A DNA stretch of 63,984 nucleotides from a virus. Lineage: Duplodnaviria; Caudoviricetes. This document shows positions 1-63,984 of the stretch, one piece after another; position 1 is the first letter of the stretch, and each line of letters opens with the position of its first letter. The notes under the pieces are model-generated. The model did not search any database and was not told where the DNA came from. It was given only the letters and a program-made list of their open reading frames with translations. The translations under genes were made by a program, and so were the position numbers. The DNA lies in IMG/VR virus record IMGVR_UViG_3300007609_000018, positions 1 to 63,984 of that record; one strand, written 5' to 3'.

Positions 1-224
1 CTTTCAAGTTCTAAGGCAGTACGCTTTGTTTTTTCAGCGTGTTTTAATCGTTTTGTTTTTGCTTTTACTTCTCGTTTGCTAGGGCATTTTAAAATAGTGT
101 CACAGTTTTTTGCTTGACAATGAACTAATTTTATTTCAAGGTCGTGTATTTGTTGGCGAAGTTTCTTTTTAGTTTGTCCGTTTGCTGCAGAAAATAAAAA
201 TAATATTATTATAAAATGTTTCAT
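1..224 (-). CDS. partial ORF, signal-peptide/membrane-anchored protein in lysis region (possible spanin-like)
   Basis: ATG at 224 gives MKHFIIILFLFSAANGQTKKKLRQQIHDLEIK..., a hydrophobic N-terminus followed by a coiled coil; it runs off the window edge. Confidence 0.4.
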   Translation of the reverse strand, partial: MKHFIIILFLFSAANGQTKKKLRQQIHDLEIKLVHCQAKNCDTILKCPSKREVKAKTKRLKHAEKTKRTALELE

Positions 225-235
225 ATACACTTTTA

Positions 236-262
236 GTTGTGTTTATTCAGTTGTTGTAAGTA
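236..262 (+). other. attI-like cassette boundary site (GTTGTGTTTATTCAGTT-GTTGTAAGTA)
   Basis: GTTGTAAGTA 253-262 is the exact reverse complement of TACTTACAAC 862-871; the upstream part resembles 57351-57370. Confidence 0.6.
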
Positions 263-268
263 ATAAAA

Positions 269-847
269 TTAAAAAAGGGTAGGTGCATTTTTAAATCGGC
301 TCAATCTACCTTCTGCCATTTTAAAATACTTCTCGTTTAACTCACAGCCTATAAAGTTTCGCTCTTCCATTATTGCTGCTAATGCTGTACTTCCAGAACC
401 CATAAAAGGGTCAAAGATAGTATCACCTTGTTTAGTATTTTCTAACACCAATTTACGCATCAATGCCAACGGCTTTTGGCTTGGGTGGTCATAATATTCA
501 TCTTTTGCAAAACTCGCAGCTACTGTACTATTTATAAAGTAATGGTTATAAACTTTATAGGCTTTACCACCGTTTCTTTCTAATATAATTTCGTACATAG
601 AGCCTACACCACATTTTTTATCCCAAATATGTTTTGCTGTATAATCCAAAGGAAAGTCAACTTTAGCAGACCAAAAGATAATTTGAGGGCAATTATAATT
701 TTTAACCCAGTCTAATAATCCATCGTAATAATGGTATTCTTCTGCCATATAATCAGGGTATGGTGGGTCTGTTATAATTGCATCGAACTTTATCGTTGGC
801 AAAACATCTTCAAATCGCTTATTAAATAACTTTATTTCCATATTCAT
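269..847 (-). CDS. DNA N6-adenine/N4-cytosine methyltransferase (beta class)
   Basis: TDPPY catalytic motif, HPSQKP, DPFMGSGST SAM-binding motif. Confidence 0.92.
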   Translation of the reverse strand: MNMEIKLFNKRFEDVLPTIKFDAIITDPPYPDYMAEEYHYYDGLLDWVKNYNCPQIIFWSAKVDFPLDYTAKHIWDKKCGVGSMYEIILERNGGKAYKVYNHYFINSTVAASFAKDEYYDHPSQKPLALMRKLVLENTKQGDTIFDPFMGSGSTALAAIMEERNFIGCELNEKYFKMAEGRLSRFKNAPTLF

Positions 848-861
848 TTTTTTAATTTAAC

Positions 862-998
862 TACTTACAACAACGTATAAAGTTAATAGCTACTTTAAGC
901 GTGTTTAAGATGTTTATTTATTAATCTAAGTGCACTAGTGTACTTAATTAGGTTAGGTGCCTTAAACACGCTACTAACCTTATACAATTCCGTTACCG
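862..998 (+). repeat. attC-like imperfect inverted repeat #1
   Basis: TACAAC-aac-GTATAAAGTTAATAGC ... GCTACTAACCTTATAC-aattcc-GTTA; two A.C mismatches. Confidence 0.75.
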
Positions 999-1220
999 CC
1001 AATAATAAAGACGATACGATTGACCTCTTAACGAAGCATTGTTTTTGTCGCTTTCGTCTGAATTTTTACAACTTAATTTTGCTTTATCAAATTGATTTTT
1101 ATTTATCCTATTCTCAACTTGTTCGCTACCGATAAAATACCAATCTTCAAAATAAGCATTGTTTTTAAAAATCAATTTTTCACCTTTTGATAGTCGTTGT
1201 TCTATTTCATTTGCTTTCAT
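993..1220 (-). CDS. hypothetical protein
   Basis: 75-aa ORF co-oriented with its neighbours; stop codon overlaps the GTTA end of the attC-like site. Confidence 0.6.
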   Translation of the reverse strand: MKANEIEQRLSKGEKLIFKNNAYFEDWYFIGSEQVENRINKNQFDKAKLSCKNSDESDKNNASLRGQSYRLYYWR

Positions 1221-4088: not shown

Positions 4089-4096
4089 CAAATATA
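4089..4096 (-). promoter_or_regulatory. Bacteroidetes sigma -7 element TATATTTG
   Basis: matches TAnnTTTG, immediately upstream of the ATG at 4084. Confidence 0.5.
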
Positions 4097-26510: not shown

Positions 26511-26548
26511 AAAACTCACACCAAATATAATAATTTAATGTGAGTTTT
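26511..26548. terminator. hairpin, possible terminator, overlapping a TATATTTG -7 element (26522-26529)
   Basis: AAAACTCACA...TGTGAGTTTT inverted repeat in the intergenic gap. Confidence 0.4.
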
Positions 26549-26571
26549 GTTTTTTTGATTGTTTTTAACTG

Positions 26572-27468: not shown

Positions 27469-27490
27469 TACTTTGTTTTTTGTGTTTAAT

Positions 27491-27520
27491 AAAAAATAGA
27501 GGGTTTTTACACCCTCTATT
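27491..27520 (-). terminator. rho-independent terminator after the capsid gene
   Basis: AATAGAGGG-loop-CCCTCTATT followed by a T run on the minus strand. Confidence 0.75.
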
Positions 27521-27541
27521 GAATCTAATTTATTGGTTGGA

Positions 27542-29915: not shown

Positions 29916-29923
29916 CAAATATA
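29916..29923 (-). promoter_or_regulatory. Bacteroidetes -7 element TATATTTG
   Basis: TAnnTTTG upstream of the scaffold/capsid genes. Confidence 0.55.
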
Positions 29924-32160: not shown

Positions 32161-32168
32161 CAAAGATA
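32161..32168 (-). promoter_or_regulatory. Bacteroidetes -7 element TATCTTTG
   Basis: TAnnTTTG just upstream of the portal ATG. Confidence 0.45.
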
Positions 32169-32171
32169 TAA

Positions 32172-34394
32172 TTATTTTGGTTTATAAAAACTTGACATAC
32201 CTTTTGACTCCGTTTTTATCTTTTTCATTGGTAGTCCTTTTGCTACTAATGCTTTTGAACCGGAAACAAAAAAATCGTATGGTGAAAAATCATCTGGGTC
32301 CAAAGATAGTGCATCTTCTAAAAATCTAGGAAATGGACATCTAAACCCTCTTGTTTCAATATATGTGTCTGTTGATGCTACCATTCTTTCTATTTTAGCG
32401 GTTCCTGTCGTGCTTTCCCCTGGCGTTGCTCTTTGTTTTTGTTTTACCTTTCCTTTATAAGATTTATATTCTCTCTCAAACATTAAATACTTTTCATATC
32501 CTCTTTTTATAAAGTGTTCCCAAATTATTGGTACGTTAATCTCTGGGTACATTTTACAAGATAAATAAATACAGGCTTTTAACATATCTTCTGCGTACAT
32601 CTCTGGAGTTGCAGGTCTTTTCCCATATTCTAATACAAAGTTGTCTGTAATCCATTCTTCTTCGTGCTTTCCTAAATCTACATGAGGGTCGTAATATGCC
32701 CATATATGGCCCGTACCCATTGATTTTTTATTTGTTGCTACTTTTCTGTATCTGAATGGATCTGCTCCACCAACAAACTTGTCTGTGTTTACAGGATGTT
32801 TTTTACCACCATCTACTGTGTGTTTGTTTGATTCGGATTGTGGCATTATTTCCGTCAATCCTTTCATTAGCCACCCTCCGTTGTTTGTTGGCCTCCATAT
32901 TACTTTTGTATCTTCTTTATCGTCTAGCCAAACAAAATCACCTCTAACTAAATCTCTTTCTTCATCCCATACAAAGTAGTCAAGTCTTTTTTGAATTATA
33001 TCTGTATTAAATGGACAGTCTTTTGACATTGACCTAAAGGCCTCTTTTACTGTAAACGGATATTTCCTTATTTCGTTTTGCCTATCTTCTGGGTCCGTTA
33101 TGGATTCTCTAATTTCTGTTAATATTTGCTTTCCACCTTTTTCCCAATTTTTCAATTTTAATTCATCTGCATCTATTTCTTTTGATTCTACCATTTTTTC
33201 AATGGCTTTTCTTCTATATTCTCTTTGGTACTCTAATGGTTCATCTACTATTGGAATACCATATTGGTCGAATATGAAATTTGAATATGCAGGTTCAAAA
33301 AGTCTTATTAATCCACTTTGAGTTCTTCCTAGTGCTTTTATTTTATCTCTACCGCTTTGTTCCCATATTTTTTTGAATTGCGCACCGCCTTTTGCTTCTA
33401 ACTCTTCTACTGTTGTGGTTATTAGTGCTTTTCCAAAGACATAGTCATCTTTTAATAGCGTTGGTTTTACTTTATCCCATGTTTCATATACGTCTGATTT
33501 TTCAGTTTTTCCTGCCTCATCCATTCCGTATTTATATAGCTTTGCGCCATCATAAGCTGTTTCTGTGCTTGATCGATAATCTAAAAAACTATAAAGTTCG
33601 TCTGGCTCATCGTCTAAATCTATGTTTCTTCCAGAAGTTGTTGGGTTCCTAAATTCTAAAATGCTTTTAGGATTAGATGAGTTTGCAAATGTTGGCGAAA
33701 ACCAAAAGGGTAGTTTTTTCCATGCAGGTATTATTGCTTTATTCCAAACTGCTTGAGCATCTAAATCTGTTTTAGACTGCATTCCAGATAATACATTTTT
33801 CTTTCTTGTTGTTCCCTCTAAAAGTATGTTTCCTAAACGATATGTTTTCCCCACCCTTCTTCTTGTAAAGTTCACTCCTCCAAATACACTATTTTTTTTA
33901 CATACTTCATATTCCCACCACAACCAAAAGTCATTATCTGTCATTCTAAAATTAGGACTTCCAATATCTAATGTGTAATAGTTTAGATAGTACCATGCTA
34001 TTCCTGGAATATGAATTGGTTTTCCATAAATGTACTGCCAAACACCATGTATTCTTTTATGCCATTGTTCTTCTATCCATGCACCAATTTCTCTATCTTT
34101 TTTGGCTAACTCTATCTGAATGTTTCTTAATGGATTTTCTTTTTGTTCTTTTTTATTTTGCTTTAAGAAGTCTTTTTTTGCTTGTTCGTATAGCTTTGGT
34201 AATTTGGGGTGCTGTTCTTCTTTTACAAAGTATTGATTTTCTTTTTTTAAACCAAAGTTTTGAATATCCTCTGGCTTTGGATGGTCTGGAAGTTTTATAT
34301 TGTAAGGTAATACCCCATCTATATCTTCAGATATTGTATGTATCGGATTGAAATCTTGGTAATCTAGTATTTTACTATTTATTATGATGCCCAT
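32172..34394 (-). CDS. terL: terminase large subunit
   Basis: RRRVGKT Walker A, YGMDEAGK Walker B, GGADPF RNase H-like nuclease motif. Confidence 0.9.
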   Translation of the reverse strand: MGIIINSKILDYQDFNPIHTISEDIDGVLPYNIKLPDHPKPEDIQNFGLKKENQYFVKEEQHPKLPKLYEQAKKDFLKQNKKEQKENPLRNIQIELAKKDREIGAWIEEQWHKRIHGVWQYIYGKPIHIPGIAWYYLNYYTLDIGSPNFRMTDNDFWLWWEYEVCKKNSVFGGVNFTRRRVGKTYRLGNILLEGTTRKKNVLSGMQSKTDLDAQAVWNKAIIPAWKKLPFWFSPTFANSSNPKSILEFRNPTTSGRNIDLDDEPDELYSFLDYRSSTETAYDGAKLYKYGMDEAGKTEKSDVYETWDKVKPTLLKDDYVFGKALITTTVEELEAKGGAQFKKIWEQSGRDKIKALGRTQSGLIRLFEPAYSNFIFDQYGIPIVDEPLEYQREYRRKAIEKMVESKEIDADELKLKNWEKGGKQILTEIRESITDPEDRQNEIRKYPFTVKEAFRSMSKDCPFNTDIIQKRLDYFVWDEERDLVRGDFVWLDDKEDTKVIWRPTNNGGWLMKGLTEIMPQSESNKHTVDGGKKHPVNTDKFVGGADPFRYRKVATNKKSMGTGHIWAYYDPHVDLGKHEEEWITDNFVLEYGKRPATPEMYAEDMLKACIYLSCKMYPEINVPIIWEHFIKRGYEKYLMFEREYKSYKGKVKQKQRATPGESTTGTAKIERMVASTDTYIETRGFRCPFPRFLEDALSLDPDDFSPYDFFVSGSKALVAKGLPMKKIKTESKGMSSFYKPK

Positions 34395-35023
34395 TGTTCT
34401 GGTGTTACCTTGTATGTGTGTTTCTCTTCAACATCAAAGCTACCAACAAAATTTTGCAAATTAATATCTTTTTGAAATAATCCTTCTGCAAGGTCGTCTA
34501 TTGACTTACGAACTTCGGCTAATTTATTCATTACTTTTATCTTTTTATCTGATAGACTTAAAGCATCTTCTTTATCATCTTCTTTATTGTTTAGTGATTC
34601 TAATATTTGACTGTGCGATTCGATCATAAAACACATTGTCATAAAATCTAAACTATCTTGCATTTTTAACCATCTCAAAATTAAGTGGTTTACTATCTTG
34701 TTTTGGCCTGCTATTATTTCCATTACTTGCTCTGTAAACATTCCACTTTTATTTGGCTTATATCCTGCTAAATTCATAGCTTGTTTCTTTCTTTCGATTA
34801 TATCTACCAATTCCTTTTTTACTAATGGACTTTTTTTATCATAACACAATACAATAAATCTAATAATCTTATTTGCTGATATGCCTTTTGGCAGCTTGTG
34901 CAATATCCCAATAAATATGTTTTTTAAGTCTTTAAACTCTTCTACGTTTGTTATATCACGACCTACTTGTACGCTCATAACATTAAACTTCATTTCTCTA
35001 AATTCTGTTGGGTTGTAGTTCAT
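34382..35023 (-). CDS. putative terminase small subunit
   Basis: helical 213-aa ORF overlapping the terL start; YDKKSPL motif. Confidence 0.45.
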   Translation of the reverse strand: MNYNPTEFREMKFNVMSVQVGRDITNVEEFKDLKNIFIGILHKLPKGISANKIIRFIVLCYDKKSPLVKKELVDIIERKKQAMNLAGYKPNKSGMFTEQVMEIIAGQNKIVNHLILRWLKMQDSLDFMTMCFMIESHSQILESLNNKEDDKEDALSLSDKKIKVMNKLAEVRKSIDDLAEGLFQKDINLQNFVGSFDVEEKHTYKVTPEQWAS

Positions 35024-35040: not shown

Positions 35041-35067
35041 TATTAACTATATTCGGTAGTTACCTAT
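35041..35067 (+). other. attI-like cassette boundary site
   Basis: TTAACTATATTCGGTA-GTTACCT; GTTACCT 35059-35065 is complementary to AGGTAAC 35982-35988. Confidence 0.55.
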
Positions 35068-35087
35068 AATAATTTTTAAAAACTGCC

Positions 35088-35921
35088 CTAACTCAAACTC
35101 TGAAAAAAATGCTTAACAACTGTCACAGTCCATCCATTTCCTAAAAGGTTCTTTCTTATATTCTCACTATACCCTTTTGTATAGTCTTTTGGAATACCTT
35201 GCAATAACTCCCAATAACTACTGTTTGCCATATAAAATTCATTGTTTTTTTGGTAAAATATACTTGCAGATGTCGTTTGTCTATTTCCTGTTGATGTTAA
35301 TGTTGGTGCATTTTTCAATTCACTTAAATTATAAGGGTTAAAGAAGTTGGGTAATTTTTTAAACATAGATGTTTTTCTTTTAACAAAAGGAACAGGGTTT
35401 ACTTTATTAAATAATTCACTACTGAACTTAATTGGAATATTCTTTTTTTCATAATCTGTAAACGGTATATTAGTCCAGTAATACCTTGGTCTATTTTGCC
35501 CGGTAAAATACTTAGAGTTTATTTTTATTGGCTCAACACCTAATTTCTCGTTAATAATATTTAGCCATTCTTTTTTCATAGAAACATTTTCTAAAAAAAA
35601 ATATTTAGGTTTTAAAAATTCTTTTGCCTTTACAAACTCAAAAAACAACTTACTTCTTTTGTCGTAAAAATTTAATTGTTTACCAATACTACTAAACCCT
35701 TGACAGGGACTTCCACCTATTAATAAATCAATTTTTGGTAATTTATTTAATTTAGCAGAACAAACATCCCCCATTTGTTTGGTGCTTGGGTAATTTCTCA
35801 AAGTTACTTCTATCGCTTTTTTATCTATTTCATAAGCAAAATAATTATCTATTTTTATATTTAATTTGTCTAAAGCAATTTGCCCACAACTGATTCCATC
35901 AAAATAGCTTACTACATTCAT
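35088..35921 (-). CDS. DNA (cytosine-5)-methyltransferase
   Basis: SYFDGI, GGSPCQGFS, LENV, QNRPRYYW, LGNGW motifs. Confidence 0.92.
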   Translation of the reverse strand: MNVVSYFDGISCGQIALDKLNIKIDNYFAYEIDKKAIEVTLRNYPSTKQMGDVCSAKLNKLPKIDLLIGGSPCQGFSSIGKQLNFYDKRSKLFFEFVKAKEFLKPKYFFLENVSMKKEWLNIINEKLGVEPIKINSKYFTGQNRPRYYWTNIPFTDYEKKNIPIKFSSELFNKVNPVPFVKRKTSMFKKLPNFFNPYNLSELKNAPTLTSTGNRQTTSASIFYQKNNEFYMANSSYWELLQGIPKDYTKGYSENIRKNLLGNGWTVTVVKHFFQSLS

Positions 35922-35979
35922 TTTATTTATGTTTTATTTGCCCTCGTACATCACGCAGGGCGGTTTTAAAAAATTACAG

Positions 35980-36078
35980 ACAGGTAACAATGTATATAAA
36001 AAATAGCTACTTTCAGTTGTCAAGTAATCCTTAACAACTGCTCTTTTATATCGCTACTTTACATACACAATAAAGTTT
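35980..36078 (+). repeat. attC-like imperfect inverted repeat #2
   Basis: GGTAAC-aat-GTATATAAAAAATAGC ... GCTACTTTACATACAC-aataaa-GTT. Confidence 0.7.
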
Positions 36079-36147
36079 AAAAACACAGAGGCAATTCAAC
36101 AACCTAAACCAAACTTTAAAAAAACATGACGAAAAACCGCCCCTGTG

Positions 36148-36428
36148 TTACTCTTTTACTGCATATCCCCACTTCCTAACTTTCTTAATAGCGTTCTTTA
36201 AATTCAACGCCTGGAAATATAAACAGTTTTTTCTACATTTACCCTATGTGATACACTACCATTAAACTTCGCTAAAGTGTCTTTTAAATCAATTTCTAAC
36301 ACCTTTTGTGTAGAACCTTGATACTTCCAACCCTTTAATCCTTTTCTTAGCCTTAAAGATGCAAATTTAACTTGCTTTCGCTGTTCAGCTTTCTTTACTA
36401 TCTCATCTTTTTGGTGGTTTTCAAACAT
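36148..36428 (-). pseudogene. hypothetical protein, apparently frameshifted at an A6 run (~36227-36232)
   Basis: annotated ORF ends at 36204; one added A gives ...VEKNCLYFQALNLKNAIKKVRKWGYAVKE, ending at 36148. Confidence 0.4.
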
Positions 36429-36434
36429 AATATT

Positions 36435-37070
36435 TTATTTAACAGATAACAACCTATCAATTCCTATTGCAAACCCTACTCCTCCATCATACTCTCCTCC
36501 TCCACAAATCTGTTTTGAACTTCCTAATTTATCATAAACAATTTCAAAACCTTTACCATCTTTATAGTAGTCCAACCCCCTACTTACGTTTCTATTTACT
36601 TTAAAACCCTCTATTCCAAAATATTTAATCAAATCTATTGAAATAGAAATTAAATATTCCAAAAGATCGCTTTTTGGATTTATTACTTCAACACCTAATT
36701 GTGTAAATTGCCTATATCTTCCGGCTTGTGGCCTTTCCCCTCTAAAACATTCTTGAACATAAAATAAATTAACATCTTTTTCATACTTAAATTGAGTTTT
36801 TGATAATTTCTGAATAACAGATGTATATTCTGGTGCAAGACAAATATTTCTATTTCCTCTATCAGTAAAGTTAAACATTAAATTATTATTTTCTACACCC
36901 ACTTTATCTTCAAATATATCTTGCATTTGAATAATTGGTATTGATATTTCTTGAAACCCATGGCTTGTTAAATATGTAGCCATATCAGAAATTACACTTC
37001 TTTTCTCATTTCCTAAAAGTATTCTTGTTCCTTTGTAAGTTGTCTTTTTAATCTCTAACATATTTCTCAA
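36435..37070 (-). CDS. stand-alone histidyl-tRNA synthetase catalytic core (no anticodon-binding or insertion domain)
   Basis: KGTR, GFQEISIPI (motif 1), LAPEYT, FRGERPQAGRYRQFTQLGVE (motif 2), RGLDYY, GGGEYD, GFAIGIDRL (motif 3); only 211 aa. Confidence 0.88.
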   Translation of the reverse strand: MRNMLEIKKTTYKGTRILLGNEKRSVISDMATYLTSHGFQEISIPIIQMQDIFEDKVGVENNNLMFNFTDRGNRNICLAPEYTSVIQKLSKTQFKYEKDVNLFYVQECFRGERPQAGRYRQFTQLGVEVINPKSDLLEYLISISIDLIKYFGIEGFKVNRNVSRGLDYYKDGKGFEIVYDKLGSSKQICGGGEYDGGVGFAIGIDRLLSVK

Positions 37071-38441: not shown

Positions 38442-38560
38442 AAAGCCTTAAATTAAAAAAACCTTGCCAGATGTAGGAATTAAAAAATCTATTGTGGAAG
38501 TAGTTTTTTTGCTCTGACAAGGTTCAATATGTTTTCTATCTTCCATCATAATTCCTCACA

Positions 38561-38590
38561 CAAACATAAAACCTTTTTTTCAATTTCCAA
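38561..38590 (-). promoter_or_regulatory. leftward Bacteroidetes-type promoter (-33 TTG / -7 TATGTTTG)
   Basis: minus strand reads TTGGAAATTGAAAAAAAGGTTTTATGTTTG, upstream of the GroES-like gene. Confidence 0.55.
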
Positions 38591-39240
38591 CTATTTTTTT
38601 AAAATTATTTTTTTTCACTCATATATATTCACACGCACACACGCTCTTAGTTATATATCTCTATTCTAATTACTACTTACTTAGTATAATACAAAAAATA
38701 CTAAGTATAATTAGGAAAAAAGAAAAAGAAAAAATATATTAAAAAAGAAAAAGAAAAAAGACAACCAAATTCCCACAGTTAAAATCACATTATTCCCACT
38801 TTAAAAAAATAACTTCTAAGCAATTAAAACCACTTCCCCCTATCTATCACACCAACTACTCAATAAAACCCCTCAAATCAAATAAAAAACACTAAAACAC
38901 CCATTTTTTGAAACTCAACAATAACAATACTTTAGGCAACTTCCCCCACCGTATGAACACCAACTTTTTATCCCACCAATCAAACAAACATTTATATCAC
39001 TCAAATTAACCACTAATCAAACCCAATAACAAACACTCTTAACCGTATACACTTTTTCTGCGCATAGGTGCTGTGAGTGAGTGATAGGTATATATAGGGG
39101 GGAGGGTGTCAAGGAATGGAAACGGGATCCTAAAACCCACCCCCACCGAAAACAGAACCAAATAACGAAACGCAAAGCCAACAATGCCAAAGGTCCAGAC
39201 TAACCAATGAACACAGACAAACCAATATTTTTAGAAACCT

Positions 39241-39268
39241 ATTTAACATAATATAAATTATCTACCAT
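39241..39268 (-). other. dif-like XerCD recombination site
   Basis: minus strand ATGGTAGATAA-TTTATA-TTATGTTAAAT; perfect XerD arm, 6-bp spacer, XerC-like arm ending ATAA. Confidence 0.75.
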
Positions 39269-40061
39269 ATTTTTATTGTGTAACTCATTGATTTACAGGA
39301 AACTAAACCAAAGGGAATATTCAAAATCCTTGAAACTCTGACAAGGTGGCACAATTCAACGGATAAATAACTCATTCAGATAGAAAACTAAACTATCTAA
39401 ATTTCAATTCTAAGCGCATTAAATTACCTTACCTATGCTATACCATTACTAAAAACTAAACTCTCGATATACGCTAAATTTGATACCTTTTTGAACGTTT
39501 GCACGGACACGCTGACTGTTAAAAGAAATGAATACCGCTTAAATACTACATTTTCTTTGTTTTTTTACTTTTATTCTAATGTTTAATATTTAGGTTTTTA
39601 AATAGTTGTTTTTGTGATTGGTTTTTTTTCTTTTTTTTGTTTGCTTTACTTACTCTCTATGCTTACTCTATCGCTTCGCTCTTCTTTCCTTTGTTTGTTG
39701 GGGTTTGCGTTATGTTGGTTGTTTGGCTTATTTGCTTGTTTTTATTGCTTGTATGGCATTTACTTTGTTTTGGTGGTGGATTAGTTCAGATGATTTATTT
39801 TACTTCTTTAGTCGGTCCGTTTTGAGCGCTCTCTTCGTTTCCTTTCCTTACTCCCTTTCGTTCCCTTTCCCTTTACTTGCTTTATTCTTTATGTATTAAT
39901 TATTTATTTTAAATTCTTTTGCATTGGTTTTCAGTTAGTTACAAGTTTTTATAAAGTTTTTATTCTCGTTTGTTTAGTTTTTTGAATTGTATGGGCTTAT
40001 ATTTACAACCGTTAAGGCATTAAGCCGATTTTAATATTTATAACAAGTAAATAAAAAGATT

Positions 40062-45308: not shown

Positions 45309-45521
45309 ATGAAAAAACTAAAAGAAACATTAGAAAGTAAAAAATCCGAATTGGATAATATAATTCAAGAAAGGAACAAAACCTATGAAAATCGATCTGA
45401 CAAGTGGAAGAGTTCAGAAAAGGGGTACAAACACCTTTCACAAACTGAAAGACTACAATCCTCTTCAGACAACATGGAGGAATCTATTGTATTCTTAGAA
45501 TTTTATATTAGTGAATCTTAA
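45309..45521 (+). CDS. hypothetical coiled-coil protein
   Basis: RSDKWKSSEKG motif. Confidence 0.55.
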   Translation: MKKLKETLESKKSELDNIIQERNKTYENRSDKWKSSEKGYKHLSQTERLQSSSDNMEESIVFLEFYISES

Positions 45522-45702
45522 AACTATGAAAAACTTTAAAATAACAAGAGAAGCATACGCAAAACAATCTGGACAAATTGATGATGAAAAAACAATCATT
45601 GAAGATATTTCATTGCACGAAGCTAGAATAGGACTTAAAGTTCTCAAGAAGTATCAACAAATACAGAAAACCAATTTTGAATTTACAATTAAAAACACAT
45701 AA
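45511..45702 (+). CDS. hypothetical protein
   Basis: ORF in early cluster. Confidence 0.5.
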   Translation: MNLKTMKNFKITREAYAKQSGQIDDEKTIIEDISLHEARIGLKVLKKYQQIQKTNFEFTIKNT

Positions 45703-45705
45703 CAA

Positions 45706-46161
45706 ATGGAAAAGCTAATTAATGAATTAGAATCAATCGCAAAGGAAATTTCACTTTTAAGCAACACTAAACAACCATTGCTTATCAAACCATATGGTAA
45801 GTTAGAAAACGTCATAAACAGGCTTAAATCAAACGAAATTCAGCAATCTGAACTTACAATGGCACTTGCCAACCTAAAAGAAGAAAGAGTGGGCATGATT
45901 AAAATGCGAAACACAGTCAATAAATACCTTAGAGAACACGACTTGAGCGAAGAGATAAAAGCAAGGCGGAGAATTCAAATTGCAGAAATAAACGAAGAAT
46001 TGGGATTAATTAAAGAACAAATTTCTTACCTTCACACAGTAGAGAAAAAATCAATAGACCAAAAATTCATAGAATTAGTATTGCAAAAATTAGGAAAGGA
46101 AGAGTTCCAGGCATTGCACAAACAAGCAACTCAAATTTGCAAAAATGGAGGTTCAAAATGA
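45706..46161 (+). CDS. hypothetical coiled-coil protein
   Basis: 151-aa ORF. Confidence 0.6.
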   Translation: MEKLINELESIAKEISLLSNTKQPLLIKPYGKLENVINRLKSNEIQQSELTMALANLKEERVGMIKMRNTVNKYLREHDLSEEIKARRRIQIAEINEELGLIKEQISYLHTVEKKSIDQKFIELVLQKLGKEEFQALHKQATQICKNGGSK

Positions 46162-46241
46162 TATACTTAATACTTTGGATAACACTTCAGTTAATATTTA
46201 GTATTCCTATAATTGTAGGGATATATATGGCGATTAAAAGA

Positions 46242-46439
46242 TAACATATTGTATAACAAATTTAAAGCGTATAAAAATGAAATTACTAATAGTTAATAGA
46301 CGATATTTAACAGGTGGTAAATTTTTTAGATACCAACGAATGAAAGGAGTAAAAGATTTAGGTTTTAAAATTGCAATTGGTAAATATGAATTTAGATTCT
46401 ACAAAAACTAGCGTATTTTTGTTATACGTTGTTGTGCGC
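46242..46439 (-). repeat. attC-like inverted repeat #3 (flipped; 44-codon ORF 46277-46411 in its loop)
   Basis: TAAC-atatt-GTATAACAAA ... TTTGTTATAC-gtt-GTTGTGCGC. Confidence 0.6.
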
Positions 46440-46454
46440 TTTTAATTAATTGAA

Positions 46455-46586
46455 ATGAATAACAAAGAAAAAATGATAGAACTATGTAAAAGCATGGTTG
46501 AATTAAACGAAAAAAGTAGTAGTGTCTTTGCTTCAATAAATAAAGCTATTTGGCAAAAAAAACTTGAATATTGGATTAGAGTTTAA
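46455..46586 (+). CDS. 43-aa cassette ORF (MNNKEKMIELCKSM...YWIRV)
   Basis: read manually; flanked by GTTGTGCGC 46431 and GCGCATAAC 46589. Confidence 0.5.
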   Translation: MNNKEKMIELCKSMVELNEKSSSVFASINKAIWQKKLEYWIRV

Positions 46587-46588
46587 TT

Positions 46589-46616
46589 GCGCATAACACC
46601 TTTATATAATCAACTA
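46589..46616 (-). other. attI-like cassette boundary site (flipped)
   Basis: GCGCATAAC-ACCTTTATATAATCAAC resembles the reverse complement of the other boundary sites. Confidence 0.5.
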
Positions 46617-46686
46617 AACCAAACCTTAATGCAAACAATATCAATAAATTATAATTTGAAATGGCAGTTTAAAAAACCAAAAAACA

Positions 46687-46965
46687 ATGACAGAACAAGA
46701 AAGAGTAAGACACATTAATCAATTAGTCGTATTAACAAGTTTAGTAATAGACAAATTGGAAGATTTAGAAAACGATCGGTTTCCAAAGTTTGCATTAAAG
46801 AAAGCTGCAAACAATTATAAGAGAGAAATTGAGAAGTATATTAATACTGTTTATGATGAAGGAAAACGTCAAGATGAAAGCAATGCAAGAAAAGAACTTG
46901 ACACTTTACACGAATCAGTAGGTAAACTAGAAACATTTTTAAACGAAATTTATGGACCGATATGA
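46687..46965 (+). CDS. hypothetical protein
   Basis: 92-aa helical ORF. Confidence 0.6.
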   Translation: MTEQERVRHINQLVVLTSLVIDKLEDLENDRFPKFALKKAANNYKREIEKYINTVYDEGKRQDESNARKELDTLHESVGKLETFLNEIYGPI

Positions 46966-48087: not shown

Positions 48088-48103
48088 AGTTCTTAAAATT
48101 ACA

Positions 48104-48129
48104 AAAGCCAGATGATTAGTCTGGCTTTA
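48104..48129 (-). terminator. possible rho-independent terminator
   Basis: AAAGCCAGA-loop-TCTGGCTTT hairpin. Confidence 0.45.
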
Positions 48130-48383
48130 CACAAAAAAGAAGTAATACACATAAATAGTGGATTGTGAAGTTCAAATTTAACTCCTTCTTTTTATTATTT
48201 AATACAAAATTTTTCATAGGAATTGACTAAAATTTAGTCTTTAATTCAGCAAGGTAAATCCACATTTTCTCTATTGCAGGTTTTAGTTTTTCAGCTTCAA
48301 AATCTTTCTTTTTATCTCTTAACTGATAATAAATACTTTCGTGCAATCCTATTGATTGTCTTAATCTTTGATACTTAGTCTTG

Positions 48384-53934: not shown

Positions 53935-53965
53935 TTTATCTTTTGTATATTTTATAGTTAGCTAC
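53935..53965 (+). other. attI-like cassette boundary site
   Basis: TTTTGTATATTTTATA-GTTAGCTAC; near-complement of GTGGCTAAC 54165-54173. Confidence 0.5.
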
Positions 53966-54152
53966 AATTATCCAACGCACGTTCTATCGTGTAAAAACCT
54001 AACCTATCACCATTTACTATTTTCCTGCATTTAGTTTCAAAATCCCTCTCGTCTTGCCCTAACACAATATAACCGCTGAACTCTCTCACTATTGGTGCTT
54101 TGTGCTTTACGTTATTAATTGCTTGTTCAATTTGTTTATCTGTATATGCCAT
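53958..54152 (-). CDS. hypothetical cassette protein
   Basis: 64 aa; stop codon is the TAA of the boundary core. Confidence 0.6.
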   Translation of the reverse strand: MAYTDKQIEQAINNVKHKAPIVREFSGYIVLGQDERDFETKCRKIVNGDRLGFYTIERALDNCS

Positions 54153-54164
54153 AGCTCTTTAAAA

Positions 54165-54260
54165 GTGGCTAACACAAAATATAGTGAATAGCCGATTAAA
54201 CATTTATTTCAATAGCCAAGTTTTAGGTGTCGGCTACTCACCATACATTCAACGTTATAA
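54165..54260 (+). repeat. attC-like imperfect inverted repeat #4
   Basis: GCTAAC-acaaaa-TATAGTGAATAGCCG ... CGGCTACTCACCATA-cattcaac-GTTATAA. Confidence 0.75.
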
Positions 54261-56210: not shown

Positions 56211-57291
56211 CTGTATCTAATAGTTCTTTCACTAATGTTTCTGGTGGACAGTCTTTTATTCGGTTGTTTAGTTGTAATTTTCCATATCTGTTTTTCTTAT
56301 TGTCTATTCTACCACCTTCAGATATGTCTAAATCATCAAACCTTAACTCTTCTAACTCTATCATTTCTTTTGCTATCAAGTTCTTTACTTCCAATTCTCT
56401 TGATTTACATTCTTTTGAAATTTCATTTAAGCATTTCCACTTGTAAGCTAATTCTAAATGCTCGTGTGTTCCAATACCCCAATCCGGATCAGTTCTATAT
56501 CTTTCACTCATAAATTGCTTATAAGTTTCCGTATTGTCTGGGTCCGGTTCTAATTTCTGAATACCACTTGGAGTGTCTTGATTTACAAATGAAACATATC
56601 CTTCTTCTTTTGCTATCTCTTTTGCAGGTAATACTTTGTCATACCAAAATCTTTTAGAAATGTCTATAATTTTGTTTTTAAGGGATTTTATTCCATCACT
56701 ATCGCCTGGTATCGGAAATGTTTTAAAGTTTCTTAGATTGTCAAATATTACTGTTTCTGCGTAATCTAACTCAAAGATTATCATTCCTTGTGTTGGTTGT
56801 GCAATATATTCTGGTGGTATTCCATCTTCCCACTTATTTAAAGCAAATGAATTGGCTGTTTTAATCTCTAATACAGATTCTTTTTCTTCTACCTCACCTG
56901 TGGCTAAGTTTACACTTCCCTTATTCATTAATCTGTCAATAGAGTAAAATAGCCATGGATAATCTGGATTAACTGCATATCCATTTATCTTTCTACACCT
57001 TCGGATTATTTTACCTTCATTGAAGTTTTCAATATATCCATCTTCCGTTCCATCTATGTATTGCCAAATGTTAGCTATCATATCTTCCATTTGCCTACCC
57101 CAAAATAAATGTTGGTTATCCTTTAGTGGTTTTAAAACACCTATCTTCTCATAGAACACTTCTACTGCTGATTTATAAGGGTTTAATCCTAACATAGCAC
57201 TTATGTCTGAACCACCTATGCCGTTTAGCCTAAACTCATACCATTCTCGACTATGGGTTTCTATTCTGTGTATTTGTATTTTACTTTTCAT
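56182..57291 (-). CDS. YqaJ/lambda-exonuclease-family recombinase nuclease
   Basis: W...R.NGIGGSD..A.LGLNPYKS, WG..ME, SIDR, LEIKT, Y.AQ motifs. Confidence 0.9.
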   Translation of the reverse strand: MKSKIQIHRIETHSREWYEFRLNGIGGSDISAMLGLNPYKSAVEVFYEKIGVLKPLKDNQHLFWGRQMEDMIANIWQYIDGTEDGYIENFNEGKIIRRCRKINGYAVNPDYPWLFYSIDRLMNKGSVNLATGEVEEKESVLEIKTANSFALNKWEDGIPPEYIAQPTQGMIIFELDYAETVIFDNLRNFKTFPIPGDSDGIKSLKNKIIDISKRFWYDKVLPAKEIAKEEGYVSFVNQDTPSGIQKLEPDPDNTETYKQFMSERYRTDPDWGIGTHEHLELAYKWKCLNEISKECKSRELEVKNLIAKEMIELEELRFDDLDISEGGRIDNKKNRYGKLQLNNRIKDCPPETLVKELLDTVDFKEWFKQ

Positions 57292-57350
57292 ATTTTTCTA
57301 TATTTTCAAACTATATTTTTTTGATTATAAATACTTTATAGTTTGGTTGG

Positions 57351-57377
57351 GTTGTTTATATTCAGATGTTACCTGCC
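57351..57377 (+). other. attI-like cassette boundary site
   Basis: GTTGTTTATATTCAGAT-GTTACCTGCC; 57368-57377 is the exact complement of GGCAGGTAAC 57591-57600. Confidence 0.65.
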
Positions 57378-57378
57378 A

Positions 57379-57645
57379 TTATACAGCAGACAGGCTATTC
57401 CAAGTTTTTAATATTGTGAACTTATACCAAGCTCTATCAAAATAATAGCCTTTCTTTGCAAGTATAAGTTCAATCAAATGTTGTTCGGCTTCTTTTTCAG
57501 TTTCAAACCCTTCTTTAGGTTGTTCATCAATCGTTTTCACATCTCTACTACCAATATTTCCAACTTGGTAATAAACGTAAATAAAATAACGGCAGGTAAC
57601 AGCACCTATATTCAATAGCGGTTTTTGTGGTTCATTTGAGTTCAT
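57379..57645 (-). CDS. hypothetical cassette protein, start codon inside attC-like site
   Basis: N-terminal MNSNEPQKPLLNIGAV is encoded by the hairpin. Confidence 0.6.
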   Translation of the reverse strand: MNSNEPQKPLLNIGAVTCRYFIYVYYQVGNIGSRDVKTIDEQPKEGFETEKEAEQHLIELILAKKGYYFDRAWYKFTILKTWNSLSAV

Positions 57646-57725
57646 ATTTTCTAATTTAATTTTGTGAATAATTCAAGTTTTGTACTTCTAAGTTCGCAAC
57701 TAAATATAGCTGCGAACCGTTATAG
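57591..57725 (+). repeat. attC-like imperfect inverted repeat #5
   Basis: GGTAAC-agcac-CTATATTCAATAGCG ... CGCAACTAAATATAG-ctgcgaacc-GTTATAG. Confidence 0.75.
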
Positions 57726-58085: not shown

Positions 58086-58101
58086 TATTTCTAAGTAAAA
58101 C

Positions 58102-58233
58102 GCCCTATAATAAAGTGTATAGCAAATTGTGGGCGTGTTACAGTTTGCTACTTTGTACCTTTAACTTAATGCTTTGCAAGCTGTTAGGTAGATACTTTTA
58201 ATCCCACAACTTGCCATATTCAAATCGTTACCC
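58102..58233 (+). repeat. attC-like imperfect inverted repeat #6 (AAC core changed to AAT)
   Basis: CTATAAT-aaagtg-TATAGCAAATTGTGGG ... CCCACAACTTGCCATA-ttcaaatc-GTTA. Confidence 0.75.
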
Positions 58234-58239
58234 GTAATA

Positions 58240-58653
58240 CTATCTACGGAATAATCTAACACCGTCTACTTCTTCAAAATCTAAATCTCTTACTTTGCTT
58301 AAAACAGAATTTCCAAATTCAGAAAGTTTATCGTACAATTCCTTTAAGCGATTTTCATCCTCTCTATTATCACATAATTCTACCCATCTTCTTATAAGTT
58401 CTCTGTTTAATTCTGGGTGGTTTAATGAGTTGTTTTTAAGTTTATGAAATTCTGCACTCCAATATGCTACCGTATCGCTTATTTGTTTTACTTTCATTTC
58501 AAGTGGGTAGCATCTATCGCTTACATCACTACTTACTAACCTAAGCACTCCATCACTAACACTTGTAATTCTGTTTTCCTCTGTTTCCATTATTTGTTGA
58601 AGTTTGAAATCACAGAAACACCAATCTTCTTTTTTAAACTTTAAATTTTTCAT
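58240..58653 (-). CDS. hypothetical protein
   Basis: 137-aa ORF between the two arrays. Confidence 0.65.
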   Translation of the reverse strand: MKNLKFKKEDWCFCDFKLQQIMETEENRITSVSDGVLRLVSSDVSDRCYPLEMKVKQISDTVAYWSAEFHKLKNNSLNHPELNRELIRRWVELCDNREDENRLKELYDKLSEFGNSVLSKVRDLDFEEVDGVRLFRR

Positions 58654-58669
58654 CTGTTATATTTTTTAA

Positions 58670-58697
58670 GTTGTTTATTATTAGATTTTAGCAGTAA
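58670..58697 (+). other. degenerate attI-like boundary site
   Basis: GTTGTTTATTATTAGAT-TTTAGCAGTA versus GTTGGCAGTA expected from the complement of 58973-58982. Confidence 0.4.
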
Positions 58698-58700
58698 TAG

Positions 58701-59033
58701 CTACTCACTACCGTTAAACCTTAGTGGTTGCTTACCCAATAGTGCAATCATTTCTTCGGTTCGTTTCTCGTTATACTCTTGGTATTCTTTAGGTGTCATT
58801 AACTTATAACCATCGCTTTCAAATACTTGAAACCTTTTTCGTAGTTTCTTATTAATCCAAGAGTAATAACGTTCCCAACTATCTAAATCTCTTGGCTTAA
58901 ACATATCTCCTGCCGTATCAATATCGTCAAGTAATTCCCAAAGAAATTCGGCTTGCTTTCTGTCAATTTTACTACTGCCAACAACAGGTGTAGTGCATTG
59001 CTCTGTTTTGTTCTTTTTGCTATCGTCTTTCAT
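58701..59033 (-). CDS. hypothetical cassette protein, start codon inside attC-like site
   Basis: N-terminal MKDDSKKNKTEQCTTPVV is encoded by the hairpin. Confidence 0.6.
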   Translation of the reverse strand: MKDDSKKNKTEQCTTPVVGSSKIDRKQAEFLWELLDDIDTAGDMFKPRDLDSWERYYSWINKKLRKRFQVFESDGYKLMTPKEYQEYNEKRTEEMIALLGKQPLRFNGSE

Positions 59034-59106
59034 TTATCTAGATTTAAGTGTTACTAATTAAGTTCGTGCTGTAAGGTTGTCACACACCATACCCAAAACG
59101 TTATAC
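58974..59106 (+). repeat. attC-like imperfect inverted repeat #7
   Basis: GCCAAC-aaca-GGTGTAGTGCATTGC ... GTCACACACCATACC-caaaac-GTTATAC. Confidence 0.6.
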
Positions 59107-59112
59107 TCAACG

Positions 59113-60171
59113 TTACTTTTCTATATGAGCAACAACCTTATCAATCAAAGCATTTACATCTGAATACATCTTTTGATTCTTCTTTGATTTAAAAGAATAT
59201 TTTGTTTTTAATTCTAATAAATCTGCTTTCAAGTCTGCTACCTTTTCAATGTCGCCTTTTGATAGTTCTAGTTGCCTTGCTTTTTCTTCTTCTGCCAACC
59301 TATCCTTTTCTTGTTGTTCTTTGGCTTTTAACTTAGCTGCTAACTCGTCTTTTGCTTTCTGTTCAGCTTCAAGTTTGGCTTTGTTTTCAGCATCTATTTT
59401 GGCTTGTTTTGATCTTTCTTCTTCTTGCTGTTGTTTTAATTTTTCATTTTCTTCTCTGATTCTTTCTTGCTCAAAATCATAGGCCTCTTTTTCAGACTTT
59501 AATTCCTTTAGTTTAGATTGAAATTCATCTTCAGACATTTCTCTTAAATCTAAATCTTCGTATAAAAAATTAAAATAAGGTCTTAATAATACTTGTCTTG
59601 AATGGCTTAACTCAGTTTTCTCACGTTCTATCCTTTCTTGTTCTAATCTATCTTCTTCTGCTTTCTTAATTGCAGCTTGTTCATCTTCCCATGCCGTTTT
59701 CTTTGCACTTAAATACGCTTGCCATACATCTTCTTCCATTGCTGATAAATTGCGCTCTGCTGCATCTTCTAAGTACGGCTCTAATTCAGATACTCTTTTT
59801 TGTTGAAGTTTGTCTAAACGCTCTTTTTCAAGGTTTTCATAGTAGTTCTCAATTTCAGATAGCTTTTCTTCCATTTGCACTACCGGTTCTGTTAGTTTAT
59901 TTTTAATTGCATCAACAAACTTTCCTGCTTGTAAAAAGTATTGCTTTTCTACCTTATGGATTTTAGCTACACCTGTTCTAACTTTTACAAGTTTCTTTCT
60001 TAATTCAGATGCTTTTCCTACTAAATCTTCTGATATTTCAGCATTAATTATTTCAGCATACACTTTTTCATACCCTTTCTTTTCTTCTATTTTAGGAAAG
60101 AATGATTGCTCTATGCTTATTGCTTTTTCTGGTTGCAAATTAAAATCTTCGTGTTTTACTATTTGTGTCAT
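59113..60171 (-). CDS. coiled-coil protein (DUF1351-like, recombination-module associated)
   Basis: A..LR..LVKVRT...K..K...L..GKFVD...LTEP...ME..L; long E/K-rich coil. Confidence 0.55.
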   Translation of the reverse strand: MTQIVKHEDFNLQPEKAISIEQSFFPKIEEKKGYEKVYAEIINAEISEDLVGKASELRKKLVKVRTGVAKIHKVEKQYFLQAGKFVDAIKNKLTEPVVQMEEKLSEIENYYENLEKERLDKLQQKRVSELEPYLEDAAERNLSAMEEDVWQAYLSAKKTAWEDEQAAIKKAEEDRLEQERIEREKTELSHSRQVLLRPYFNFLYEDLDLREMSEDEFQSKLKELKSEKEAYDFEQERIREENEKLKQQQEEERSKQAKIDAENKAKLEAEQKAKDELAAKLKAKEQQEKDRLAEEEKARQLELSKGDIEKVADLKADLLELKTKYSFKSKKNQKMYSDVNALIDKVVAHIEK

Positions 60172-63528: not shown

Positions 63529-63565
63529 AGTCAATGTTTTATATTTGGGTGAGTATATATGGTAG

Positions 63566-63826
63566 TTACCTATGTATTCTCGGATTGTTTTCACACCAAA
63601 CCTTGAACCTTTCATACTTATCGTTATCTACAATTACTTTGTAGCCTTTATCCTCTTTCTCTTGACCTTTAATTACATACTTTCCAGAAAAAGCAAATGC
63701 ACAATCTAAATCATCATCTATTATTGATTGCTCAATAGTTGCTCTACTTGCACCTGTTTCAAACATTACTTTTCCTATTGACTTTACATTAGGAATACTG
63801 TTTATTACTATGTTTATTAATGCCAT
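63566..63826 (-). CDS. hypothetical protein (possible excisionase-like HTH)
   Basis: 86-aa ORF. Confidence 0.5.
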   Translation of the reverse strand: MALINIVINSIPNVKSIGKVMFETGASRATIEQSIIDDDLDCAFAFSGKYVIKGQEKEDKGYKVIVDNDKYERFKVWCENNPRIHR

Positions 63827-63984
63827 TATATTGTGTTTTTATCTATTGCTAAATTGTTTTCTATTAAGTTGTGAATGTCAAAGTGATGTTTGTATAGTAA
63901 TTGAACAAGTCCGTAAGGTAGGTTTTCAGCTTTAATATTTTTTATTTCATAAATTTCTATATCAAATTTATCTAAATATCCTGC

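Follow-up and report, generated by a model that had tools for sequence, protein, structure and literature searches.

Does a lytic phage that carries small arrays of add-on genes begin each of them with a docking site of the kind known as attI in integrons? The question was raised by six short motifs in the window, i.e. the whole stretch of DNA analysed (63,984 bp), which is one virus record (IMG/VR IMGVR_UViG_3300007609_000018; completeness rating 100%) and represents a lytic phage of Flavobacteriaceae type. An earlier note, made from the letters alone, had described the motifs as a second, non-hairpin, attI-like class of site that closes every array; all six strings were recovered exactly, in position as well as in strand, and an additional site was found among the best non-training matches of a weight matrix built from the six. 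The sites are designated s1 to s7 and the hairpins A to G (Table 1). The motif is genuine, and it sits at the junction where the integron-like cassette arrays of the phage start. That all six sites and the additional one at 63548 are such junctions, loaded by a recombinase of the host, is the explanation that was preferred, with somewhat more confidence than doubt.

Chromosomal arrays of Flavobacteriaceae hosts were used for comparison. In the host loci L326-L359 (e.g. L329:3095-3182, L348, L352), co-oriented small open reading frames (ORFs) are separated by imperfect palindromes of ~110 nt, and the best match to the integron-integrase model in each of five host genomes was an ORF of 374-396 aa heading the array; in all four arrays fetched, this recombinase stands at the head and is co-directional with the cassette ORFs. 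It scored 189-236 bits against NF040815 ("site-specific tyrosine recombinase/integron integrase"), passing or nearing the cut-off of 220, and a match with E<=1e-60 was obtained by protein search in 88 of 151 sampled Flavobacteriaceae genomes. 3' of the recombinase stop, a palindrome with 10-12-bp arms (described as perfect for the arrays of L326-L359), followed by a spacer of 1-6 nt and GTT, was identified at 19 loci and taken as the host docking site. Ten further loci were excluded from this set (longest ORF not the recombinase, flank cut, or no clear site), and in four more the site was seen by eye and not picked up automatically.

Read opposite to the phage genes, the window sites show the geometry TAT, six bases, GTT (TAT-N6-GTT). 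This geometry was present in 18 of 19 host recombinase-proximal sites vs none of 107 host cassette repeats (Fisher p=7e-21), in which the triplet at that position was CAC in 67, TAC in 13 and never TAT. In the window, 6/7 non-hairpin sites carry it vs 0/7 hairpins (Fisher p=0.005), a difference weakened by the fact that the window sites had been chosen by eye for likeness, so that the shared TAT is partly built in and only the host comparison is independent. The site without it is s6, already described as decayed in the earlier note, in which the core triplet is lost. The proposal of a distinct non-hairpin class is thus borne out, and the class resembles the host docking site. A weight matrix of the 19 host sites only was scanned over ~128,000 window positions and placed s1 at rank 1 (score 19.2 vs a mean shuffle maximum of 13.7) and s3 at rank 4 (score 12.5). 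The host cassette half-site matrix (107 repeats) placed hairpin A at rank 1 (score 18.9) and element E at rank 3, with none of the non-hairpin window sites in its top 25. From matrix and geometry together, the two classes in the window separate along the host's own two classes. Viewed in host cassette orientation, the sites sit at the start of the array, which is the attI position. The attI-like reading is therefore partly supported, by host docking-site geometry, the model ranks of s1 and s3 and the array-start position; it is weakened by s2, s5 and s6, which did poorly in the host models, and by the lack of a recombinase in the window. The suggested comparison with the site beside integron-like recombinase genes succeeded for s1 and s3 by models and for 6/7 sites by geometry, with poor matches at 35042, 53940 and 58670.

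Cassette starts were compared with the far end of the same ORF unit, using 100 shuffles for each comparison. Repeats bracketing the cassette were obtained at s1 (24 nt, 22/24 matches), s2 (32 nt with one gap, 35957-35988 pairing with 35059-35090) and s3 (15 nt, 14/15 matches), and in each case the score was reached by 0/100 shuffles; the s3 bracket was also found by an inverted-repeat search (16 nt, 94%; repeat I22). All three alignments stop exactly at AAC/GTT, which for s3 is the core GTTACC at 57368-57373 on the plus strand. The motif is not a free-standing word: at 236, 35042 and 57351, a long inverted repeat flanks the upstream ORF and has the first AAC of the motif as its final triplet. 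At s4, bracketing is confined to a short repeat without significance (GTTGTGCGC / GCGCATAAC). Complementarity of the kind seen at s1, s2 and s3 is the trace that a cassette inserted at G|TT leaves in integrons. The 57367/57586 repeat was also considered as a miniature inverted-repeat transposable element or a target-site duplication, and was better explained as a pairing of cassette start with cassette end.

The same evidence bears on whether the sites are no more than worn-down remains of ordinary cassette hairpins, each reduced to a half by deletion or decay of one arm of the first repeat in its array, with no dedicated docking class at all. The layout of arm end, spacer and GTT is indeed common to the sites and to the cassette-side halves of the hairpins, s6 is visibly decayed, a compressed palindrome at s2 and an imperfect one at s1 can be seen by eye, and 4/7 sites lack a significant bracket repeat. 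The TAT geometry argues against such an origin, being absent from all 107 host cassette repeats and all seven window hairpins yet present in 18/19 host docking sites and 6/7 window sites, and no site reached the top 25 of the half-site matrix derived from the host attC-type repeats. This origin is therefore regarded as improbable, though it deserves to be kept in mind.

The hairpins are homologues of cassette recombination sites. A profile hidden Markov model (HMM) of 102 Flavobacteriaceae chromosomal repeats matched hairpin A of the window over its full length (46 bits, E=2.9e-13); the next three matches were E, D and C at E=0.65-3.7 (0.65 for element E), so that homology to the host array repeats is significant for hairpin A alone. 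Hairpin A consists of an outer pairing GGTAAC/GTTGTT, a 5' bulge and an inner stem. It is 73-77% identical to stretches of the Polaribacter phage Freya and the Tenacibaculum phage JQ, and its right arm matches the Polaribacter phages P12002L and P12002S, in the former ~0.7 kb upstream of an annotated methyltransferase. As in attC sites, an imperfect palindrome with outer AAC...GTT is found at hairpin A, and cassette boundaries at G|TT are found in the brackets at s1, s2 and s3. A stretch of 1.5 kb contains hairpins E, C and F; A, B, D and G are located elsewhere in the window.

Hairpins A and D have a 14-mer of the right arm and flank in common. An exact scan with the shorter string TTATACGTTGTTGT returned at least 120 loci, mostly by chance, and a longer degenerate right-arm pattern was therefore needed. 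This pattern (21 nt, ATTAAYTWTAYACGTTGTTGT, exact scan) was found in 29 viral loci and in at least 125 bacterial loci, nearly all from Flavobacteriaceae, including Winogradskyella, Lacinutrix, Olleya, Polaribacter, Tenacibaculum and Psychroserpens; the outliers among the bacterial matches listed were one labelled Gammaproteobacteria and one Balneola. In five host genomes, 18-67 copies each were counted at <=3 mismatches vs 0-5 per strand in the backwards control, and the copies form same-strand clusters with a spacing of 0.5-2 kb. In bacteria, the copies are imperfect palindromes (median arm-to-arm distance 109 nt over 106 distinct copies) placed between ORFs that share one direction and belong to the other strand. 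Rfam, which holds no attC model, gave no relevant match in the window and 36 related loci and no match in 18 host loci; a miRNA match (E=0.93) in 18 phage loci was dismissed as chance. For locus L165, no megablast match was obtained in the phage collection.

In the inner stem of 106 host repeats, whose right arm was fixed by the search pattern, 263 G.T vs 14 A.C pairs were counted on the strand opposite to the host ORFs. This excess indicates that the fold is favoured in the DNA strand antisense to the host genes and not in host mRNA, similar to attC bottom strands, and a reading of the stems as mRNA structures only was rejected, since the favoured strand in hosts is antisense to the genes. 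In the phages, the structure-favoured strand is the gene-sense strand.

In other phage contigs (L162 of G008, L163/L164 of G006, L166-L194), stems of the family take in the 5' leader of small ORFs together with their first ~40 codons. The left arm lay ~36-72 nt (mostly 40-50) upstream of the ATG in 31/111 tested ORF contexts, and the right arm lies at about codons 39-46, read in two frames as AINYTRCC (often) or LSLYDVV, with compensatory changes between the arms of these coding stems. The conserved right arm is the exact point at which one N-terminal module is joined to differing C-terminal parts (L176 vs L179/L183), and in phage G006 the same brackets flank three methyltransferase genes of different families. 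A corresponding leader-to-codons-35-50 structure downstream of the window sites was searched for, with no convincing partner in the window, and the host-attI HMM gave no interpretable ranking on 53 kb of other phage loci.

These module swaps are among the observations that would fit a different role, in which the sites are regulatory joints (promoter, terminator or mRNA-processing elements) similar to the PeSL elements of T4-type phages, and the cassettes are moved by homologous recombination through the phage's own RecT and YqaJ. PeSLs are described, in the accessible parts of the reports, as composite promoter/terminator motifs that mediate modular shuffling (PMC2839356, PMC4122927). The window sites lie 16-81 nt ahead of start codons, s3 and s4 have ~70 nt in common including TATARTTTG 35 nt downstream, RecT and a YqaJ exonuclease are encoded by the phage, and the differing modules of L176 vs L179/L183 meet exactly at the right arm. 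Yet the Bacteroidetes -7 motif TAnnTTTG, which precedes late genes in the window, was absent from all sites in a consensus test, and the same test found no host-type promoter with terminator stem-loop at the sites. Hairpins of the family have no T-run, while canonical terminators are present in the window at 26520-26571, 27469-27541 and 48088-48226. Likeness to the host recombinase-proximal site and the G.T bias of the antisense strand would also be left unexplained. Regulatory joints are considered improbable, to the same degree as the worn-down hairpin halves. Hairpin promoters of N4- or crAss-type for a virion RNA polymerase were rejected as well: they are far smaller than the window hairpins, and the 3231-aa ORF of the window had no Pfam, PHROG or PDB-sequence match.

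Similarity among the sites was assessed with a leave-one-out weight matrix over the six sites listed in the earlier note (127,930 positions). The ranks were 2 (57351), 3 (236), 11 (46595), 28 (58670), 84 (35042) and 193 (53940); four sites are thus similar far beyond chance, and the claim that all six motifs are related is weak for 35042 and 53940. In gene direction, hairpin and non-hairpin sites begin alike with (Y)AAC, a short A/T-rich spacer, often with GAAT, and then (G)TAT; in many cases, the upstream ORF terminates with the TAA of TAAC. At five sites, an array of add-on ORFs comes to its end directly before core genes. The statement that such a site closes every array holds for these five and fails for 58670, which is internal (between ORF 58701-59033 and ORF 58240-58653), and the statement that it stands instead of a hairpin has to be softened, as 35042 can form a 6-bp mini-hairpin and 236 is adjoined by an imperfect palindrome (by eye). 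Chance similarity of A/T-rich intergenic stretches chosen by eye, for which the 31.6% G+C of the genome, the ranks of 84 and 193 and the absence of a degenerate 14-nt pattern from five distant relatives might speak, is largely refuted and very improbable, given four sites at ranks 2, 3, 11 and 28 of 127,930 and models made from bacterial genomes alone that rank two sites first and second to fourth in the window.

Several results weigh against the preferred explanation of array-start junctions loaded by a host recombinase. Just 2/7 sites score clearly with the host attI models, s1 being individually convincing and s3 less so. In the host docking-site matrix, s4 (rank 19) and s5 (rank 26) were at noise level and s2, s6 and s7 were outside the top 30, and the ranks obtained for s1 and s3 by nhmmer with host docking models (1 and 2 with the right-arm model, 1 and 4 with the full-site model) came with E-values of 0.5-5, which are not significant alone. 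The docking sites of the hosts have both arms of the palindrome; most window sites retain only one. Bracket repeats were not significant at s4, s5, s6 and s7, with none at s6 and s7. A tyrosine recombinase or Phage_integrase domain was absent among 61 window ORFs (Pfam) and from a six-frame PF00589 search of the window. The host recombinase scored 178-205 bits against TIGR02249 (IntI), below the cut-off of 265, with model positions 180-236 unmatched; as the enzyme is Xer-like and under the IntI cut-off, the term integron applies by analogy only. Relative to the site, all phage ORFs, those of the window as well as those of the other phage contigs, point against the direction of host cassette ORFs, and with this inverted orientation the phage units are not ordinary host cassettes. 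The G.T excess may be a family trait that was inherited once.

Table 1 Positions of sites, hairpins, cassette features and arrays in the window
Feature	Position	Strand	Description
s1	236..260	-	attI-like junction downstream of the methylase cassette, ~12 nt upstream of an ORF with ATG at 224; plus-strand layout L-box ..TTTAT, 6 nt, then GTTGTAAG
s2	35042..35066	-	between the C5-methylase cassette and ORF 34382-35023
s3	57351..57377	-	between the cassette of ORF 57379-57645 and the YqaJ-type exonuclease gene
s4	46590..46614	+	after the 43-aa ORF 46455-46586, upstream of ORF 46687-46965
s5	53940..53964	-	after the 64-aa ORF 53958-54152, upstream of RecT; TAA stop within GCTAAC
s6	58670..58689	-	decayed copy inside an array; core triplet lost (AAA/TTT); no TAT-N6-GTT
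s7	63548..63572 (motif 63548-63567)	-	additional site; TAA stop of ORF 63566-63826 within GGTAAC
Hairpin A	862..999	-	attC-like; homologous to the host chromosomal cassette repeat along its entire length; adjoins the methylase ORF on its upstream side
Hairpin B	54153..54254	-	TAAC, spacer, then 17-bp imperfect stem
Hairpin C	58086..58239	-	fourth best match of the host attC HMM, E=3.7
Hairpin D	46240..46440	+	large loop; right flank identical to A across 14 nt; third best match of the host attC HMM
Element E	59034..59112	-	bounds the 57-59 kb array at its far end; located at the stop of gene 59113-60171
Hairpin F	57646..57719	-	short 10-bp stem of another sequence type; then C, then core
Hairpin region G	35922..36203	-	includes the far-end arm 35957-35988
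Far-end arm, methylase cassette (R''-like)	848..871	+	complementary to 237-260; part of the 39-nt repeat 243-281 / 843-881
Far-end arm, s3 cassette	57586..57600	+	pairs with 57368-57382; within the first codons of ORF 57379-57645
N6/N4 DNA methyltransferase cargo ORF	269..847	-	192 aa; Pfam match to the C-terminal end only, positions 158-220 of 221
C5 cytosine methyltransferase cargo ORF	35088..35921	-	277 aa; Pfam positions 1-113 of 324
Array 1			hairpin A / methylase / site 236
Array 2			hairpin G / C5 methylase / site 35042
Array 3			hairpin D / 43-aa ORF / site 46595
Array 4			hairpin B / 64-aa ORF / site 53940
Array 5			hairpins E, C, F / ... / site 57351

For the preferred explanation, the following course of events is considered the most likely. 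Read opposite to the phage genes, an array consists of the docking motif (TAT, 6 nt, G|TT), a cassette, a hairpin, a further cassette, a further hairpin and so on, in which the non-hairpin sites have the host attI-type geometry, usually with the cassette-side arm, spacer and GTT core only. During infection, the host recombinase would act on phage DNA and join a folded cassette site to the simple site at G|TT. On the gene strand, the crossover would then be AA|C, often formed by the TAA stop of the upstream phage gene plus C. Add-on genes (DNA methyltransferases and small ORFs) would thereby be inserted between core genes, and a docking half-site would remain at one end of the inserted unit. 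The phage thus probably borrows the cut-and-paste enzyme of its host, as judged from sequence comparison. The sites would be targets rather than remnants and may still be active; the designation as primary insertion sites, proposed in the earlier note, would then be suitable.

Compared with a classical integron, the window has the same order of docking site, cassette, hairpin, cassette and hairpin, the same crossover triplet G|TT, cassette starts complementary to their own far ends and one DNA strand favoured for structure. Unlike it, the window encodes no IntI, and the host enzyme has no match to the middle of the IntI model. Of the R-box RYYYAAC / GTTRRRY, only AAC/GTT is constant in the cores GTTACCT, GTTAGCT, GTTATGC and GTTGTAA; some fit GTTR and none fits fully. 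The cargo is inverted, and every phage ORF of the window arrays reads toward the simple site. The contrast with the single attI of a classical integron, drawn in the earlier note, holds true, with six to seven simple sites and no intI.

Comparable systems were sought in the literature, and the statements that follow apply to the accessible parts of the sources. Virulent phages carry clusters of attC sites without integrase (CALINs), including Polaribacter phage P12002L with two methyltransferase genes, whose attC sites were predicted with IntegronFinder / HattCI; phage attC sites were recombined into attI1 by IntI1, and one CALIN, that of a Shewanella prophage, begins with an attI site (PMC9892861; Qi, Ghaly, Tetu, Gillings 2023). 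With phage CALINs in print since 2023, phage-borne arrays as such were already known. The window phage resembles them in being lytic and devoid of an integrase, with co-oriented cassette-like units, hairpin sites and DNA methyltransferase cargo, and at least two neighbouring attC-type sites without an integrase are present, the sites having been called by homology and structure. It differs by five separate arrays, each begun by a simple site of host-attI geometry, in a lytic phage, by a partner enzyme family that is Xer-like in the hosts and not IntI, and by cargo ORFs that are all antisense to the usual cassette direction; moreover, two attC oligonucleotides of P12002L are short (~60-70 nt) vs ~110-140 nt in the window family.

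The host arrays, for their part, are similar to the rAID-1 arrays of Bacteroidales (Ross et al. 2019, 10.1101/471110), in which an XerD-like recombinase at the 5' end is followed by genes of the same direction, with integron-like repeats between genes and a motif of its own kind immediately 3' of the recombinase. The Flavobacteriaceae arrays likewise have integron-like intergenic repeats, a 5' XerD-like co-directional recombinase and a distinct 3' motif. In contrast, rAID-1 is defined, in the accessible part of that source, for gut Bacteroidales, with immunity genes as cargo and a minimum identity of 44% to the recombinase of B. fragilis, and the window is a phage without a recombinase. According to IntegronFinder 2.0, in the accessible part of the report, a single complete integron was found in Bacteroidetes, in Salinibacter (PMC9024848). 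PeSLs of T4-type phages (PMC2839356, PMC4122927) are comparable as short conserved intergenic motifs with stem-loops that bound small non-essential genes and serve as joints for exchange; they differ, as far as the accessible parts show, in being sigma70-type early promoters plus terminators used in homologous recombination, whereas the window motifs are homologous to host site-specific recombination sites. Within this limited literature check, no account was met of the combination of several sites of host-docking geometry in one lytic phage, a link to Xer-like arrays of Flavobacteriaceae and inverted cargo.

Further observations were made at the sites and cassettes. Rank 2 in the scan with the host docking-site matrix (14.3) was taken by 45696-45719 (-) at the TAA-C/ATG junction of ORFs 45511-45702 and 45706-46161; having no adjoining cassette, and with a shuffle-maximum mean of 13.7, it is possibly an empty site or a chance match. 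Downstream of the motif, s3 and s4 (57285-57370 (-) and 46595-46690 (+)) share ~70 nt with CAAC-yyAAmCCAAAC and TATARTTTG exactly 35 nt downstream, and a third copy of the middle part of this stretch is located at 36100-36119 (+). A sub-threshold Arm-DNA-bind_4 match (E=1.9e-4) in ORF 57379-57645 was the sole recombinase-like hint in the window. The two cassette methyltransferase ORFs may be truncated or split genes, judging from their partial Pfam matches. The ORF that begins ~12 nt past s1 (ATG 224; signal-peptide-like N-terminus) is truncated by the start of the record, for which the ends 1-224 (-) and 63827-63984 were considered; the record is probably circularly permuted or cut inside the ORF at 1-224.

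The phage genome falls into three blocks. Late/structural genes, among them those for the portal, the large terminase and capsid-type proteins, occupy the minus strand between ~38.4 and 0.3 kb, small ORFs the plus strand at 38.5-47.3 kb, and replication/recombination genes the minus strand at 63.8-47.3 kb, with DnaB, DnaG, RecT, YqaJ exonuclease, an RNase T-type exonuclease and a C5 methylase (Pfam). The large terminase was closest to Flavobacterium, Cellulophaga and Tenacibaculum phages at an identity of <=30%; ORF 34382-35023, upstream of its gene, had no family match. The nearest capsid relative, on an 11-kb contig, had 71% identity, and 40 IMG/VR loci were recovered with the capsid alignment at <=41%; the degenerate 14-nt pattern TAACNNNNGAATAT was not found in five of these distant capsid-relative contigs. 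The YqaJ protein query returned 0 relatives in viral contigs and 0 in metagenome contigs, an 8-kb megablast against the phage collection gave no match, and the window contains no tRNA genes and no Rfam match. The 3231-aa ORF mentioned above lies in the structural block (4149-13844 (-)). ORF 36435-37070 (-; 211 aa) has a histidyl-tRNA synthetase class II core match (PF13393, E=7e-19), which is unusual as cargo, given the size of the phage. The late and small-ORF blocks diverge and are separated by 1.1 kb (38442-39617) that hold two short ORFs only and long A-rich and purine-rich runs, and may represent an origin or early control region. Bacteroidetes -7 motifs of the type TTATATATTTG precede late genes on the minus strand at 4089-4096, 26522-26529, 29916-29923 and 32161-32168, just 3-19 nt ahead of the start codon, a spacing that suggests very short leaders on late genes.

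A more far-reaching proposal, that lytic phages of Flavobacteriaceae maintain several host-attI-type docking sites where core genes stop (TAA|C) and, having no integrase themselves, use the Xer-like recombinase of the host to load, swap and unload inverted cassettes, is advanced tentatively and is less probable than the array-start reading itself. If it were true, the phage genome would be a multi-site integron platform with DNA methyltransferases and small anti-defence-type genes as cargo, connected with a cassette system that is very widespread in Flavobacteriaceae chromosomes and has as yet no name. If the array-start reading is correct, it would offer a concrete, testable way for lytic phages to acquire and swap add-on genes via the host's own cassette recombinase, with the docking-site geometry TAT, six bases, G|TT as a direct target for mutation. 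The add-on genes are here mainly DNA methyltransferases, which would counter restriction, and phage CALINs would be tied to a chromosomal cassette system that is apparently common in marine Flavobacteriaceae and lies outside the usual definitions of integrons.

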